From an uncultured bacterium (GTDB lineage: Bacteria; Krumholzibacteriota; Krumholzibacteriia; JACNKJ01), in NCBI GenBank assembly GCA_963695095.1, contig CAVOFT010000001.1, forward strand, positions 1,600,001 through 1,664,000: a stretch of DNA of 64,000 nt, in the 5' to 3' direction. Made by a program: the position numbers. Of the stretch, positions 45,001 to 51,000 are shown in pieces (position 1 is the first letter of the stretch; every line of letters starts with the position of its first letter).

Positions 45001-48000
45001 GGGACGAGGGCGGCGGCCTCGTGCTCAGCTATGGCGCCGGCCTCGATGCGGCGCCCACGGGCCGCTTCAAGCTGGGACCCGAGCCGGGGACGACGGCCAA
45101 TGCCGCGCTCTCGCTGCTTACCGTCGACGGGCAGGTGGCCATCGGCACCGAATTCGGGCTCTACCGGGCGCGCCTGGATGCTCGCGTGGGCGACGATCTC
45201 CTGCCGCTCGCGCCGGACAGCACCTTCGGCCGCGCCTTCGCCGACAGCAGCCGCGAGGTCTATCGCCTGGTTCAGGATGGTCGTGGCGCCGCCTGGATAG
45301 CCGGGGACGAGACGATCGGCTTCGTGCCGCGTGGCGGGCAGGCCGCTGAAGACTGGCAATCGCGAGACCTGATGCGCATTCCGCACCTGGCCAGCATGGC
45401 CCTGCTGCTCGAGCCCGATGGTGTGCTCTGGGTGGGCCACTACTACGGCCTCACCCGTCTCGATCAGCGGGCCCCCGCCCGCCACCTGGCCAGTTATCGC
45501 CCCTTGCTGCGCGTCAGCGCCGTGGATCCGGACTCGCTCCTGCGCGGCGTGCGCCCCGGTGGCCCCGCCGTCGAGGCGCTGCCGGCAGGCCTCGGCGCCC
45601 TGCGCTTCGAGTTCGCGGCGCCCAGCCTCGACGCTCCGGCCCGCACGCTCTTCCGCCACCGCCTGGACGGCTTCGATGACAAGTGGTCCGAGTGGTCTGT
45701 CGACACGCGCAAGGATTACACGAACCTGGCCGGCGGCAGCTACCGCTTCCGCGTCCAGGCCCGCGATCTCTACGGGACCGAGAGCGCCGAGGCCAGCTAT
45801 GCCTTTCGCATCCCCCTGCCCTGGACGCGGACCTGGTGGGCCTATGGCGGCCTCGGTCTGCTGCTGCTCGGCCTGGTGGCGCTGCTGGGGGGCGGCCTGA
45901 ACCGCTACCGGATGCGACTGCTCGAGGCGCGCATCCGTGAGCGCACCTCGCAGCTGGTGAAGATGGTGGGCGAACTGCAGACTTCGCAGCAGGAGGCCGA
46001 GCAGGCGCGCAGCGAGGCGGAGGCCGCCACGCGCGCCAAGAGCGAGTTCCTGGCCACGATGAGCCATGAGATCCGCACGCCGATGAACGGCGTCATCGGC
46101 ATGGCCCAGCTCATCCTGGACAGCGGACCCAACGATGAGCACCGCGACTACCTGGAGATCATCCGCAGCTCGGGCGATGCCCTGCTCGTGATCATCAACG
46201 ACATCCTCGATTTCTCGAAGATCGAGGCGGGCCTGCTCGAGCTGAGCGACGAGCCCTTCGCCCTGCACGAGTGCGTGGAAGAAGCGCTCGACCTCGTCTC
46301 CCTGCGCGTGGCCGAGAAGCGGCTGGAGCTTTCCTGCCTGCTGGCGCCGGAGTTGCCGCAGCTGATTCTCGGCGACGGTCCGCGCTTGCGCCAGATCTTG
46401 ATCAACCTGCTCTCGAACGCGGTGAAGTTCACCGAGCGCGGGGAAGTCGGCCTCCAGGTCGATGCGCGTGCGCTCACGGGCGATCGCGTCGAGCTGCACT
46501 TCAGCGTGCGCGACACCGGCATCGGCATCTCGCCGGAGGGGCAGGCGCGGCTGTTCAAGTCCTTCAGCCAGGTGGACGGTTCCACCTCGCGCAAGTACGG
46601 CGGCACCGGCCTCGGTCTCGCCATTTGCAAGCAGCTCTGCGAGCTGATGGGCGGCCGCATCTGGGTGGAGAGCGAGGCTGGGCGCGGCGCCGTCTTCCAC
46701 TTCACGATGCGCGCGCCGGTGCTGGAGCTGGGGGGGCAGACGCCCCCGTCGCCCGCCCTGGCGGGGCGACGGGCCCTGCTGGTGGAGGACAACGCCGCGA
46801 GCCGCGCCGCGCTGTTGCTGGCGCTGCGCGGCCAGGGGCTCGCGGTCCGCGCCGCGGCGAGCGGCGAGGAAGCGCTCTCCAGCCTGGCTGCGAGCGAGGC
46901 CGAGGGCGAAGGCCTCGACCTGCTGCTCGTGGACGAGGATCTCGGCGGACTCGACCGCGGCGATTGCGCACAGCGTCTGGCGACCTTGCTCGCGCCGCGC
47001 GGCGTGCCGGTGATCCTCCTCCAAGGGCCGGGGCTGGGCGGAGGGCGCCTGGAGGATCCCGGCTTCGTCGGCGCCCTGACCAAGCCGGTCAAGGCGAGTC
47101 AGCTTGCGCAGCTGCTGTCGATGATCTTCGCCGAGGGGCGGACTGGCGAGCGGCCGCCGGCGGGCGCCAGGCCACTGGCCGTGCTGGCGGGCGGACGGGA
47201 TGGCGTCGGCTCCAGCGAGTCTCCCCTGCGCATCTTGCTTGCCGAGGACAACCAGGTCAACCAGAAGGTCGCCCTCAGCATGCTGAGACGCCTGGGCCTG
47301 CGTGCGGATCTGGCCGAGAACGGCCTCGTCGCCCTGCAGCGCCTGGCGGAACAGGACTACGATCTCGTGCTGATGGATATGCAGATGCCCCAGCTGGATG
47401 GGCTGGCCGCCACGCGCCGCATCCGCGCCGAGCTACCGCTGGAGCGGCAGCCGCGCATCGTCGCCGTCACCGCCAATGCCATGAAGGGCGACCGCGAGCG
47501 CTGCCTGGAGGCCGGCATGGACGACTACGTGAGCAAGCCGCTGCGCAAGGAAGACCTCGAAGGCGCCCTGGCGCGCGCCGGCCTGCTGGCGCGGCCCTAG
47601 GCCGGTCGCCGCCTAGGGGCTCGCGGTCTCGGGCACCGCGTAGACCACGTCGAGCAGGGTCCCGTCCACCCACTTCACCGCGCCCACGATCCTGTCGCTC
47701 ACGCGCGGCGGGGCGGGCTTGCCGCCGCAGATCGCCTCCACCTCGGCCTGCAACTCGGCGATGGGCCGCAGCGGCAGACCCGCGGCCCGCGCCGCCGTCG
47801 CCAGGTCCTCGCGGCGCGGGTTCACCGCCAGTCCGCGCTCCGTGACGACGACGTCGATGAGCTCGCCTGGGCCGCAAAGCGTGGTGACTTCATCCACGAG
47901 CACCGGGATGCGATCGCGGTAGGAAGGGATGGGCAGGATGGTCACCTTGGCGGTGAGGCAGTTCTGCCAGCCGCCGATGCCGTGCAGCATGAGGCCGTCG

Positions 48001-51000
48001 GAGTGGGTGACCACGTTGGCGTTGAAGTGGCGGTCCACCTCGGTGGCGCCGAGAATGGCGAAGTCGACCAGGGAGGCGAAATTGCCCTTGCCGTGCCAGT
48101 TGTAGCTGGTGAAGGGGCTGGTTGCCACGTGACGCGGGTTCTCGCGCATCGAGCGCACGCCCTCGAGGTCGAAGGTCTGACCGTCGAGGATGTAGTCGGC
48201 CAGGCCCTCCTCGAGCATCTCGACGAGGTACTTGGTCGAGCCGCCGCGCAGGAAGCGCGCGCGCACGCCATCGGCCAGCATCATCTCCTTGAGGAAGAGC
48301 GCCGAGGCCAGCGCCGTGCCGCCGGCGCCGGCCTGCATCGAGAAGCCGTCGCGATAGTAGGGCGTAGCGCGCATGAAGCGCGCGGTGAGCTCGGAAATCA
48401 ACAGGCGGTCGGGACTCTTCGTGAGCACCGTGGTGCCGCTGACGATCTGGGCCGGGTCACCGATCGAGTCCAGCTCGACCACGTAGTCCACGTTGTTGCC
48501 CTGGATCTGCCAGGGCACGCAGGGGAAGGGCACCAGGTTGTCGGTGACGACGATGACGCGGTCGGCGTACATCGAATCGACGAGGCCGAAGTTGAGGCTG
48601 CCGCAGGCGCTGGGCCCGCGGTCACCGGTGGCGTTGCCGAAGGCGTCCGCCGTGGGGGCGGGCAGGATGGCGATGTCGATGTGCACCTCGCCGTCCTGGA
48701 CGGCCTGCCAGCGGCCGCCGTGGCTGCGCAGCACGGCGACGCCGTTCATGTGGCCGCGGCTGGCGAAGTGGCCGAGGGGGCCGTTGAGCGAGCCCTCGAC
48801 GCGGCGGACGACGCCCGCCTTCATCAGCTCGATGATCGGCGCGTGACAGGGGAAGGCGGCGCTGGGGAACCAGACGAGGTCCTTGACGCCGAGTTCCGCC
48901 GCGGCCTGGAAGACGAGGTTCATCACCCGGTCGCCGTTGCGGAAGTGGTGGTGGTTGCTGATCGTCATGCCATCGCGCAGGCCGCAATGGCGCAGCGCTT
49001 CCTTGATGCTCGCCACGCGCTTGTCGCCGTCGGCGGGGTAGTCCGCGCAGTGGCGGATCGGCGGTGCTGCCTTGCGGCCGGTCGGGGCGAACTGCCCGAG
49101 GCCCTGGTAGGGCACCTGGGGGACGCCGTTGATTGCCGTGGGCACCTTGCGCCCCGCGGCGTTGACGGTGAACTCGCTCACGACGCCACCTCCTCTGCCT
49201 CGCGCCAGTCCGCGGCCAGGCGACCGGTGGCGACGGCGAGCTGAACCGTGTGCTGGGCGCGCTTCACCACGGGCGGATCGATCATCTTGCTGCCCAGGCT
49301 CACCACCCCGAGCCCCCTGGCCACGGCCGCCTCGAAGGCGAGCACGATCCGGCGCGCCTTGTCGACCTCGGCCGGCTCCGGCGCGAAGGCCTCGTGGACG
49401 ACGCGGATCTGCCGCGGGTGGATGCAGCCCTTGCCGTCGAAGCCCAGCGCGCGGGCTTCGAGCACGCTGGCGCGCAGGCCCGCCATGTCGTCGACATCGC
49501 TGAAGACGGTGTCGATGGGCTGGACGCCGGCCGCCCGGGCGGCATTGACGATCACCGAGCGCAGCCAGAAGCTCTCGCGGCCCTCGGCCGTGCGCGCCAC
49601 GCCGAGGTCGGCGGTGTAGTCCTCCAGGCCGAGGGCGAGGGCGACGACGCTGGGGTCGGCGCCCGCGATCTCCAGGGCGCGCAGGGCGCCCAGGGCGCTC
49701 TCGACGATGGGCATCAGCCAGATGGGCTCGCTGCGGCCGCAGGCGGCGGCCAGTTCACGCGCACGGGCGGCGACGGCGGCCACCTGGTCGGCGCTCTCCA
49801 CCTTCGGGATCAGGATGAGCTGAACGGCGTGCGGGATCAGCCAGTCGAGATCCACGAGACCGTGTGGGCCTTGATTGATGCGCACCATCAGCTCGGCGGC
49901 GCCGAAGTCGACGCTGCGCAGAGCGTTGCGCACGAGGCAGCGGGCGGCATCCTTCTCGGCCGGCGCCACCGAGTCTTCGAGGTCGAGGATGACGGCGTCG
50001 GGGCCGTGGAGGCCGGCGTTGAGCATCAGCTTGGGCTGGGTGCCGGGCAGGTAGAGCCGGCTGCGCCGGAAGCGGTCCCGGGGCGAGGGAGGCGGGGCCG
50101 GCCGCGTGACGGGCGGCAGCAGTTCCGGGCACTCGCCGCCGCGGGCGCGGCGGGCGGCCGTCTCCAGGCGGGCGGCGATCACGAAGGGCAGCGCGCCGCT
50201 GTCTTCCATCTCCAGGCGGGCATGGGCGATGCCGAGCGCCGCCAGTCCCGCGGCAAGCTGGGCCCGGATGGCCTCACCGTACATCGACTCCACCTTCGAG
50301 CGCAGAGCGATCTCGATGCCGCCCGCCTCGCGCAGTTCCAGGGCAATCCAGCAATCCGAGCGGACGTCCGCCCCACGGGCGCCCGCCTCGGCCATGGCAG
50401 CGCTCATTCCCCGCCTCGTTTCGTTGAATGGATCGAGCAGCGGCAACAAATAGCACGGCCCGGCGGCGCTGCGCAATGGCCGCCCGCGGGCTACTCCGCC
50501 AGCGTGGAGGCCCGGGTCAGCCGCGAGAAGCGCACGCCCTTGAGGCCGCCGATACGGATGGCCAGCTTTTCGATCTCGGCCGGGCGGCCGCGCAGGAGGA
50601 TCACCTCCAGGCAGTGGTGGTGGTCCACGTGGACGTGCGTGCTGCAGAGCACGTTGATGTAGCGGTTGTGCTGGGCCTCGGCGAGCCGGTCGGCGAGGCC
50701 CCGCTGGTGGTGATCATAGCTGATCGTCAGCGTGCCGTAGACGGTGCCGCGGCCCCGCTCCCACTTCTCGGTCACCAGGCGCTCGCGGATGAGGTCGCGC
50801 ACGAGTTCGGAGCGGGAGGGATAGCCCTGGCGCGTGACGCGCCGGTCGAGCTCCGCCAGGAGCCCGGCGGGCAGGGATACGCTGAAGCGCTGCAGGTCCG
50901 CTTTGGCCATGGTCTCAATCCCAGTCGTGGAGGTGGTAGTGCCGGTGCTCGAGCTCGCCGTGGCGGTGGCCGTGCCGGTGCAGGAGGCCGGCGGCCAGCA

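Follow-up and report, generated by a model that had tools for sequence, protein, structure and literature searches.

Gene organization of the locus

The window, a stretch of 64,000 nucleotides (contig positions 1600001-1664000) from the genome of an uncultured Krumholzibacteriota bacterium, contains a two-gene system related to citrate lyase (Table 1). The upstream gene encodes a fusion protein (PF06857 at residues 16-88, E 1e-16; PF03328 at residues 115-331), and the GTG start codon of citF overlaps its TGA stop codon. The ORFs and the PF06857, PF03328 and PF04223 matches are in agreement with the survey's finding that CitD is fused to CitE and precedes citF. All three modules (CitD, CitE and CitF) are present, with scores on the NCBIfam equivalog models just below or below the cut-offs (carrier domain on TIGR01608, 51.3 bits against 63.5; CitF on TIGR01584, 493.6 bits against 501.45).

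Table 1. Features of the window; positions are counted from its first nucleotide.
Feature	Position	Strand	Basis
CitD-CitE fusion gene, 409 aa	49178..50407	(-)	ORF and profile matches
Carrier domain, CitD/MdcC family (residues 1-95)	50123..50407	(-)	PF06857, TIGR01608
CGC TCG GAT, Arg16-Ser17-Asp18	50354..50362	(-)	Sequence and alignments
CitE-type acyl-CoA lyase TIM barrel (residues 112-395)	49223..50074	(-)	Profile and fold matches
citF, family II CoA/ACP transferase, 522 aa	47613..49181	(-)	PF04223
Homoisocitrate-dehydrogenase-like enzyme, motif S-P-I-V-R-L-R	41202..42320	(+)	Best matches and motif
MmgE/PrpD-family dehydratase, candidate homocitrate dehydratase	55177..56619	(-)	Family match

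The fusion was modelled with AlphaFold2 (pLDDT 94.6, pTM 0.91). Fold searches with the full model returned matches to the barrel only, and the solved structures closest to the lyase domain were those of free acyl-CoA lyases. Seven residues of the barrel (D142, E144, D145, R176, E236, D263 and D377), presumably its metal-binding and catalytic residues, were invariant in 85 sequences. The carrier domain folded alone and without an alignment reached a pLDDT of 51, and a sequence search of the PDB found no CitD structure. A search for shorter proteins gave 17 matches, several of them on short contigs or with a partial CitE domain, and none was demonstrated to be a stand-alone carrier; tblastn found no match to the carrier domain in plasmids. 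No promoter or terminator consensus was found at the locus. RNA runs gave small shares only; the long contig among them, about 90% identical, comes from a relative and is uninformative on expression.

Missing attachment serine and arm-making genes

Ser14 of E. coli CitD is taken here to be the attachment site of the prosthetic arm, a role backed by a weak alignment to MdcC; a statement of this role was not found in the open literature. E. coli CitD (NC_000913.3; G10-T-L-E-S14-G15-D16) and the fusion (G12-A-D-V-R16-S17-D18) align without gaps, so that Arg16 of the fusion shares a column with Ser14 of CitD and Ser25 of MdcC. The latter is a published attachment site (PMC5534430), and MdcC was the top, albeit weak, PDB match (E 0.33) in a sequence-profile alignment of the carrier domain. 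The idea that the carrier loop is three residues longer than the canonical one was discarded, the alignment being gapless.

The alignment comprised 229 fusion rows, namely 120 database proteins (query included) and 109 genome loci, two overlapping sets whose related sequences are not independent. Among the 228 readable fusions, column 14 held Arg in 200, Lys in 27, His in one and Ser in none, whereas all six canonical CitD sequences have Ser there (five of the six also at column 15). Replacement of the attachment serine by Arg, as claimed in the survey, is thereby borne out, and its loss from the fusion family is well supported by the alignment; judged from its sequence, the carrier domain is not modifiable at the canonical site. 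The accompanying caveat, that a register shifted by one residue could make the serine of R-S-D the attachment site, is largely answered by the gap-free alignment and by the position of MdcC Ser25, although Ser17 (column 15) is still kept in 213 of 228 fusions. This serine, described as invariant, is replaced in the wider family by Gly (13) or Asn (2). Two earlier counts need revision: a recount of the 120 best homologues, reported as 115 with Arg or Lys and three with Gly, gave 119 with Arg or Lys, one truncated and none with Gly, and the figure of 8,000 homologues is probably too high for the fusion family because the length window of 224-716 aa also admits stand-alone CitE (302 aa in E. coli).

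The genome is 93.5% complete and contains a single PF06857 protein. With the E. coli control detected, neither CitG nor CitC was found in it, and CitX and MdcG gave no match over cut-off. CitG was found in none of 151 sampled genomes of the phylum, 106 of which have the carrier domain. Among carriers, CitG occurred in 2 of 50, and CitX and CitC in 2 of 80 each; these were always the same two genomes (G176 and G179), which have a separate canonical citDEF-XG-C operon, the CitD of G176 having Ser14. The reported absence of CitC, CitG and CitX is thus upheld, and the loss of these genes alongside the fusion is well supported. The fusion very probably bears no covalent arm.

It is very unlikely that a transferase of an unrecognised kind still modifies the carrier, be it on Ser17 or by adding another arm. 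Conservation of Ser17 would suit such a reading, as would an HD gene found in 35 of 81 loci, which is the sole recurrent neighbour without assignment, and enzymes unrelated to known families would be invisible to family searches. However, canonical CitD sequences carry Ser or Gly in column 15 and MdcC carries Gly; in 15 fusions the position is Gly or Asn, and in 11 neither Ser nor Thr occurs within the six residues preceding the Asp. CitG, which makes the precursor, was not found, and the HD family is present in 124 of 151 genomes, non-carriers among them.

A possible cycle on free CoA thioesters

With the attachment serine and the genes for assembly both lost, ordinary CoA is probably used instead. 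That free CoA thioesters serve as acyl carriers can soundly be inferred from a table in PMC8085960, where canonical CitF appears with acetyl-CoA and citrate, and from the free acyl-CoA lyases that are structurally closest to the lyase domain. In such a free-CoA cycle, which is highly likely, CitF would transfer CoA from free acetyl-CoA to a 3-hydroxy-tricarboxylate with release of acetate, and the fused CitE barrel would cleave the resulting acyl-CoA into a 2-oxoacid and regenerated acetyl-CoA, making a priming ligase unnecessary. The CitD domain would be retained as a docking module, and, speculatively, the Arg or Lys in column 14 may hold the phosphate of CoA non-covalently.

PMC8085960 also lists EC 2.8.3.11 with succinyl-CoA. 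If succinyl- or glutaryl-CoA were the donor, acetyl-CoA would be the net product and the thioester energy would be conserved. This listing and 21 CitF columns that are conserved in both arm-less subclades (see below) and differ from canonical CitF would be consistent with another donor, but homologous CitF proteins are listed with acetyl donors and the genes that recur around the 81 loci include no donor-forming one, which makes this variant quite improbable. In a quick CitF tree, which had long branches and 7 canonical rows, a branch with a support of 100 set the arm-less CitF proteins apart.

Homocitrate or citrate as substrate

The survey used the name citrate lyase and added that the substrate may be homocitrate. 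The type of lyase stands, whereas citrate as the substrate here is doubtful and the gene context favours homocitrate, which is fairly probable as the main substrate in this genome and in the R-S-D subclade to which its genes belong (see below). In 81 loci, the neighbours were CitF (75), the dehydrogenase (42), an aconitase-family protein (38), the HD protein (35; a small protein whose HD assignment was confirmed by Atlas) and PrpD (29); no locus has both PrpD (present in 32) and a second aconitase-family gene (present in 11). The dehydrogenase and PrpD are the usual operon partners in relatives, and the partner genes are scattered in this genome.

The homoaconitase of this genome reaches 849 bits on TIGR00139, against a cut-off of 530; a Lys4-type homoaconitase was also present in 13 of 45 non-carriers. 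The dehydrogenase is below the equivalog cut-offs and was assigned to the homoisocitrate type from best matches and a motif, S-P-I-V-x-L-R. Of 48 dehydrogenase ORFs, 43 have this motif, which agrees with S. pombe homoisocitrate dehydrogenase and is without the Asn seen in the compared isocitrate dehydrogenases. As to a methylcitrate cycle, PrpD reaches 93 bits against a cut-off of 575, and no full-length PrpB was found in the genome, a single query giving a 102-aa match with 37% identity to E. coli PrpB. Searches of the open-access literature yielded no relevant account of homocitrate lyase or homocitryl, nothing linking homoaconitase, citrate lyase and MmgE, and nothing relevant on a bifunctional dehydrogenase or on reductive carboxylation of 2-oxoadipate toward homocitrate.

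The alternative is an arm-less enzyme with citrate as its main substrate, or with no preference between citrate and homocitrate, whose cleavage to oxaloacetate and acetate would be the last step of a reductive TCA branch. It fits best a second subclade, with the motif K-K-G-D, whose CitF retains the canonical Asp399 and Arg497 and whose loci adjoin pyruvate-kinase and PEP-carboxykinase-like genes; full-length citrate synthase was found in 0 of 24 K-K-G-D genomes against 20 of 20 others tested. The fusion of Ignavibacterium album has also been taken as a citrate lyase, according to passages of PMC3362086. However, the genes of the window belong to the R-S-D subclade, in which CitF has changed Asp399 to Asn (72/72), Arg497 to Val (71/72) and His397 to Trp (71/72), residues that may contact the substrate. 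R-S-D loci are accompanied by a homoaconitase of the Lys4 type. Citrate synthase, AcnA and NADP-IDH are encoded separately in this genome; a lyase replacing citrate synthase was therefore rejected here. An ATP-citrate-lyase operon of its own is present in G025, a K-K-G-D genome. For the enzyme of the window, the citrate alternative is rather unlikely, whereas for the K-K-G-D subclade citrate is slightly favoured as substrate.

TIGR00139 homoaconitase was found in none of the 24 K-K-G-D genomes. An earlier view that they lack the homoaconitase module was corrected, other aconitase-family genes and the same type of dehydrogenase being present. In four of seven fetched regions this dehydrogenase lies within an oxidoreductase-malic enzyme-hydratase-PFOR operon. 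The motif may be compatible with isocitrate as well, because the S-P-I-V-x-L-R enzyme is the sole IDH-family match in five of five K-K-G-D genomes; Thermus homoisocitrate dehydrogenase accepts isocitrate too. K-K-G-D carriers have the dehydrogenase-hydratase module, yet LKR was present in just 2 of 24 of them, so that the link between this module and the lysine route is not universal.

Direction of the reaction and a proposed route of lysine breakdown

The lyase is likely to work in the cleavage direction. Lysine would be converted via saccharopine, aminoadipate semialdehyde and aminoadipate to 2-oxoadipate, which would be reductively carboxylated to homoisocitrate and converted via homoaconitate to homocitrate; cleavage of the latter to 2-oxoglutarate and acetate would complete a reversal of the upper aminoadipate route. 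By bookkeeping, the route to glutamate and acetate would be neutral in NADH. The genes for LKR and saccharopine dehydrogenase are adjacent in this genome, LKR matching human catabolic AASS (E 7e-79) far better than it matches yeast Lys1 (E 6e-12), and piperideine-6-carboxylate dehydrogenase is over cut-off. LKR was present in 77 of 82 carriers outside f3 and f7 compared with 17 of 45 non-carriers.

In the opposite direction, acetate or acetyl-CoA and 2-oxoglutarate would be joined to homocitrate and converted to 2-oxoadipate for lysine synthesis or glutaryl-CoA supply. The partner enzymes are familiar from biosynthesis, and homocitrate synthase is absent from most carriers (a close homologue in 5 of 80); one genome (G168) has lysW and lysX and no detected homocitrate synthase, and is therefore compatible with a synthetic role. 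Nevertheless, LysA, LysX, Lys2 and homocitrate synthase were not found in this genome, LysX occurs in only 6 of 80 carriers, five of which also have their own homocitrate-synthase-like gene, and Bacteroidales operons contain catabolic ALDH7-like and LKR-like genes. Synthases are driven by thioester hydrolysis, a step that the lyase reaction does not include. A synthetic role is accordingly improbable.

Taken with all its parts together, an arm-less homocitrate lyase is the best reading, with the balance about even. The broader proposal, in which a basic residue holding free CoA takes the place of the arm and a homocitrate lyase ends a CO2-fixing, redox-neutral lysine route in many phyla, its sister clade perhaps acting on citrate, is more tentative and falls somewhat short of even.

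Relation to known systems and distribution

Compared with citrate (pro-3S)-lyase CitDEF (EC 4.1.3.6; E. coli, Klebsiella, Enterococcus), the three modules are homologous and in the same order, with 41% (CitE domain) and 40% (CitF) identity to the E. coli proteins. The differences are the fusion of CitD to CitE, Arg or Lys for Ser, CitC, CitG and CitX not found, a separate CitF clade and different neighbour genes. Malyl-CoA lyase, CLYBL, (S)-citramalyl-CoA lyase and RipC share the fold of the barrel (Z 33-34 for the best two) and would also share the use of free CoA thioesters; these ACP-independent lyases are without a CitD domain and without CitF, and the fusion is far below their family cut-offs. 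Malonate decarboxylase (MdcA/MdcC, PDB 5VIT) and ACP-dependent citramalate lyase have the PF06857 carrier and a family II transferase in common with the present system, but, unlike the fusion, MdcC carries a covalent arm on Ser25 and the Peptoclostridium citramalate lyase locus encodes citC and citX. With the upper alpha-aminoadipate pathway (Lys4, Lys12/Thermus), homoaconitase (over cut-off) and the dehydrogenase motif agree, whereas a transferase and a lyase stand in for the synthase, catabolic saccharopine genes are present and the lower biosynthetic genes are mostly not found in carriers.

The CitD-CitE fusion has already been published under the heading of ordinary citrate lyase: in passages of PMC3362086, I. 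album IALB_1147 (CitE-CitD fusion) and IALB_1146 (CitF), which have the same architecture, are described as an ATP-independent citrate lyase with a possible role in the reverse TCA cycle, and these passages mention neither a missing arm nor homocitrate. Two Ignavibacterium loci (L067 and L072) carry R-S-D, and L067 has the module. If the enzyme is arm-less and cleaves homocitrate, the reverse TCA suggested from genes annotated as citrate lyase, as well as many genome-based metabolic models, would need revision. Homocitrate cleavage would then be an additional oxygen-free lysine route for anaerobic protein degraders, and a two-gene lyase without CitC, CitG and CitX, easily expressed and assayed, would illustrate how a covalent carrier becomes non-covalent. 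The arm-less citrate-lyase-like enzyme is common to many anaerobic and sediment bacteria. Co-occurrence tracks kinship.

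Attachment site and carrier domain

In a gapless MAFFT alignment, the E. coli CitD stretch G10-T-L-E-S14-G15-D16 matches G12-A-D-V-R16-S17-D18 of the CitD-CitE fusion, and Ser14, which we take to be the residue carrying the phosphoribosyl-dephospho-CoA arm, falls on Arg16. Column 14 (E. coli numbering) is Arg (200), Lys (27) or His (1) in all 228 readable rows of 229 fusions, which overlap and are related, and the survey's finding that the attachment serine is replaced by arginine is therefore upheld. No statement on the role of CitD Ser14 itself was found in the open literature searched. 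MdcC (5VIT), the top, weak PDB match of the CitD profile (E 0.33), places G21-C-V-G-S25-G-D27 in the same register, and its Ser25 is described as the attachment site of this arm (PMC5534430). It had been suggested that the Ser of R-S-D could serve as attachment site through a one-residue register shift. Column 15 is indeed Ser in 213 of the 228 readable fusions (Gly in 13, Asn in 2), but it is also Ser in five of six canonical CitD sequences (E. coli and five others), indicating that Ser17 is the ordinary neighbour; the gapless register likewise speaks against the shift, and 11 of these fusions have neither Ser nor Thr in the six residues ahead of the Asp. On these alignments, loss of the arm in the fusion is close to certain.

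The carrier domain is present only once in the genome under study (G000). Residues D18, D69, G71, A72, R80 and E82 are invariant across 85 sequences, implying that the domain is under selection, and the AlphaFold2 model of the fusion (85-row alignment; pLDDT 94.6, pTM 0.91) places Arg16-Ser17 in the loop preceding strand 18-25. The simplest putative role of the domain is docking between the transferase and lyase active sites. Among the matches listed, the nearest named homologue of the fusion is labelled Candidatus Krumholzibacteriota (76%). The survey's figure of 8,000 homologues probably overstates the size of the fusion family, as it came from a length window that also lets in plain CitE.

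Some local variation was also observed. Three fusions (loci L016, L031 and L013, two of them from Fidelibacterota) have a Pro/Asp-rich N-terminus ahead of R-S-D and lack the conserved Gly. In several Bacteroidales (L025, L030, L033, L034, L039, L043, L044, L048, L049, L057), the fusion follows a methylmalonyl-CoA epimerase/decarboxylase-like block (labels from sequence reading). In the window, a nickel/cobalt uptake block on the same strand immediately upstream of the fusion (50491-55033, -), comprising a NikR-like regulator (label from sequence reading), an ABC ATPase, CbiM and a DUF4198 gene, separates prpD from citDE.

Features of the lyase module and associated genes in G000 (C1, contig of the window)
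Feature	Position	Strand	Remarks
CitD-CitE fusion	window 49178-50407	-	409 aa; CitD/MdcC-family carrier domain (PF06857, residues 16-88) and CitE barrel
citF	window 47613-49181	-	downstream of fusion, whose stop overlaps the citF start
Beta-decarboxylating dehydrogenase	window 41202-42320		
PrpD	window 55177-56619		
Homoaconitase	C1:515108-517090		TIGR00139, 849 bits (cut-off 530)
HD-domain protein	C1:80519-81046 (L145:7520-8047)	-	~180 aa; recurrent operon member in relatives
LKR (lysine-ketoglutarate reductase-type) and saccharopine dehydrogenase	C1:3089662-3092336		adjacent

Helper genes and proposed catalytic cycle

The canonical roles of CitC, CitG and CitX have been described (PMC2996986). 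Their absence, as claimed by the survey, is borne out: none of them, nor MdcG, exceeded its cut-off in G000, and CitG was found in 0 of 151 phylum genomes, 106 of which possess the carrier domain, nearly always in long frames. In other carriers, CitG was detected in two genomes (among those corresponding to 50 of 80 GTDB loci), and CitX and CitC (one over cut-off) in two of 80 each. These were always G176 and G179, where a citDEF-XG-C operon separate from the fusion encodes them; the helpers thus accompany a Ser-type carrier, not the fusion; the CitD of this operon reads A-G-T-F-E-S-S-D in G176 and is broken off at the contig start in G179.

EC 2.8.3.10 is listed as acetyl-CoA + citrate = acetate + citryl-CoA (review table, PMC8085960), and solved relatives of the CitE barrel are enzymes of free acyl-CoA. 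Transferase and lyase might together close a cycle in which acetyl-CoA acts as the catalyst; CitC would then be unnecessary, and we infer that the arm-less enzyme turns over free CoA. New basic residues common to both arm-less subclades (fusion R117 and CitF R312) could, as a guess, contact the CoA phosphates. The arm-less citrate-lyase-type module is real and conserved; it is not a member of the canonical citrate lyases, though predicted to work alike in outline. The CitD-CitE fusion was published for I. album as ATP-independent citrate lyase (PMC3362086), whereas no paper on a homocitrate lyase, the missing arm or the gene module was found in the literature searched, which covers few subscription journals.

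Partner genes and substrate

Among 81 loci surveyed for neighbours, many ended by contig ends, CitF (75), the beta-decarboxylating dehydrogenase (42), aconitase-family (38), HD (35) and PrpD (29) genes recurred; in G000 the partners are scattered. The HD family occurs in 124 of 151 phylum genomes and is too widespread for assignment. PrpD (32 of 46 loci) and a second aconitase-family gene (11 of 46) never shared a locus, as expected if both perform homocitrate dehydration. The top PDB matches of the window dehydrogenase are Thermus homoisocitrate dehydrogenase (E 8e-73) and, close to it, isocitrate dehydrogenases (4e-71); an S-P-I-V-x-L-R motif, matching the S. pombe enzyme, is present in 43 of 48 dehydrogenase ORFs. 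G000 has its own separate citrate synthase, AcnA and NADP-IDH. Directly after the dehydrogenase gene lies a tRNA-queuosine alpha-mannosyltransferase-like glycosyltransferase (PF12038; window 42326-43414, +).

In a quick tree built from 49 CitF, a branch with support 100 separates the arm-less sequences from the rest; they fall into two subclades, named by attachment-site motif: R-S-D (33 rows, support 100) and K-K-(G/S/N)-D (9 rows, support 90). The window's genes belong to the former, for which gene context favours homocitrate as the probable substrate. Asp399 and Arg497 are lost in R-S-D CitF but kept in canonical and K-K-G-D CitF. The latter group was defined as the carriers of phylum families f3 and f7 (24 genomes, 21 of them with a readable motif); full-length citrate synthase was found in 0 of these 24 versus 20 of 20 others. 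The S-P-I-V-x-L-R dehydrogenase type was the sole IDH-family match in five of five K-K-G-D genomes, and thus the motif cannot exclude isocitrate; the dehydrogenase-aconitase module may accept both chain lengths. In four of seven regions, this dehydrogenase and two aconitase-family genes lie between 2-oxoacid oxidoreductase, malic enzyme and PFOR, which looks like a reductive TCA branch. These K-K-G-D results count against the homocitrate reading. G025, however, which also carries the arm-less lyase, encodes an ATP-citrate lyase elsewhere, in an operon that includes IDH and an aconitase-family gene (L189:5151-11467), and this points the other way. In K-K-(G/S/N)-D loci (L124-L133; L184-L190), citDE-citF is mostly flanked by pyruvate kinase on one side and by a divergent PEP-carboxykinase-like gene (645 aa) on the other.

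Lysine genes and direction

The G000 LKR is far nearer human AASS than yeast Lys1, and piperideine-6-carboxylate dehydrogenase exceeded its cut-off. With the adjacent saccharopine dehydrogenase, these genes point to lysine breakdown, in which the lyase would probably act in the cleavage direction. Searches of G000 gave no LysA, LysX, Lys2, homocitrate synthase or LeuA; lysine biosynthesis genes are reported missing in I. album too (PMC3362086). Within the phylum, LKR and Lys4-type homoaconitase were present, respectively, in 77 and 71 of the 82 carriers outside f3/f7, in two and none of the 24 carriers belonging to f3/f7, and in 17 and 13 of the 45 non-carriers. An ALDH7-like gene occurs in five of 81 loci, followed in L024 and L050 by an LKR-like gene. 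G000 has three saccharopine-dehydrogenase-family genes (C1:3077334, 3091029 and 2473597; L155, L153 and L154), one of which alone adjoins LKR.

LysX was detected in six of 80 carriers, five of which have a homocitrate-synthase-like gene within the lys cluster, below the TIGR02146 cut-off; the sixth, G168, has none there. In lyase-module genomes at L165-L169, a lysW-homocitrate synthase-lysX-lysY-lysZ-lysJ-like cluster was observed. The stretch retrieved around it showed neither a homoaconitase nor a dehydrogenase; these genomes may borrow both from the lyase module.
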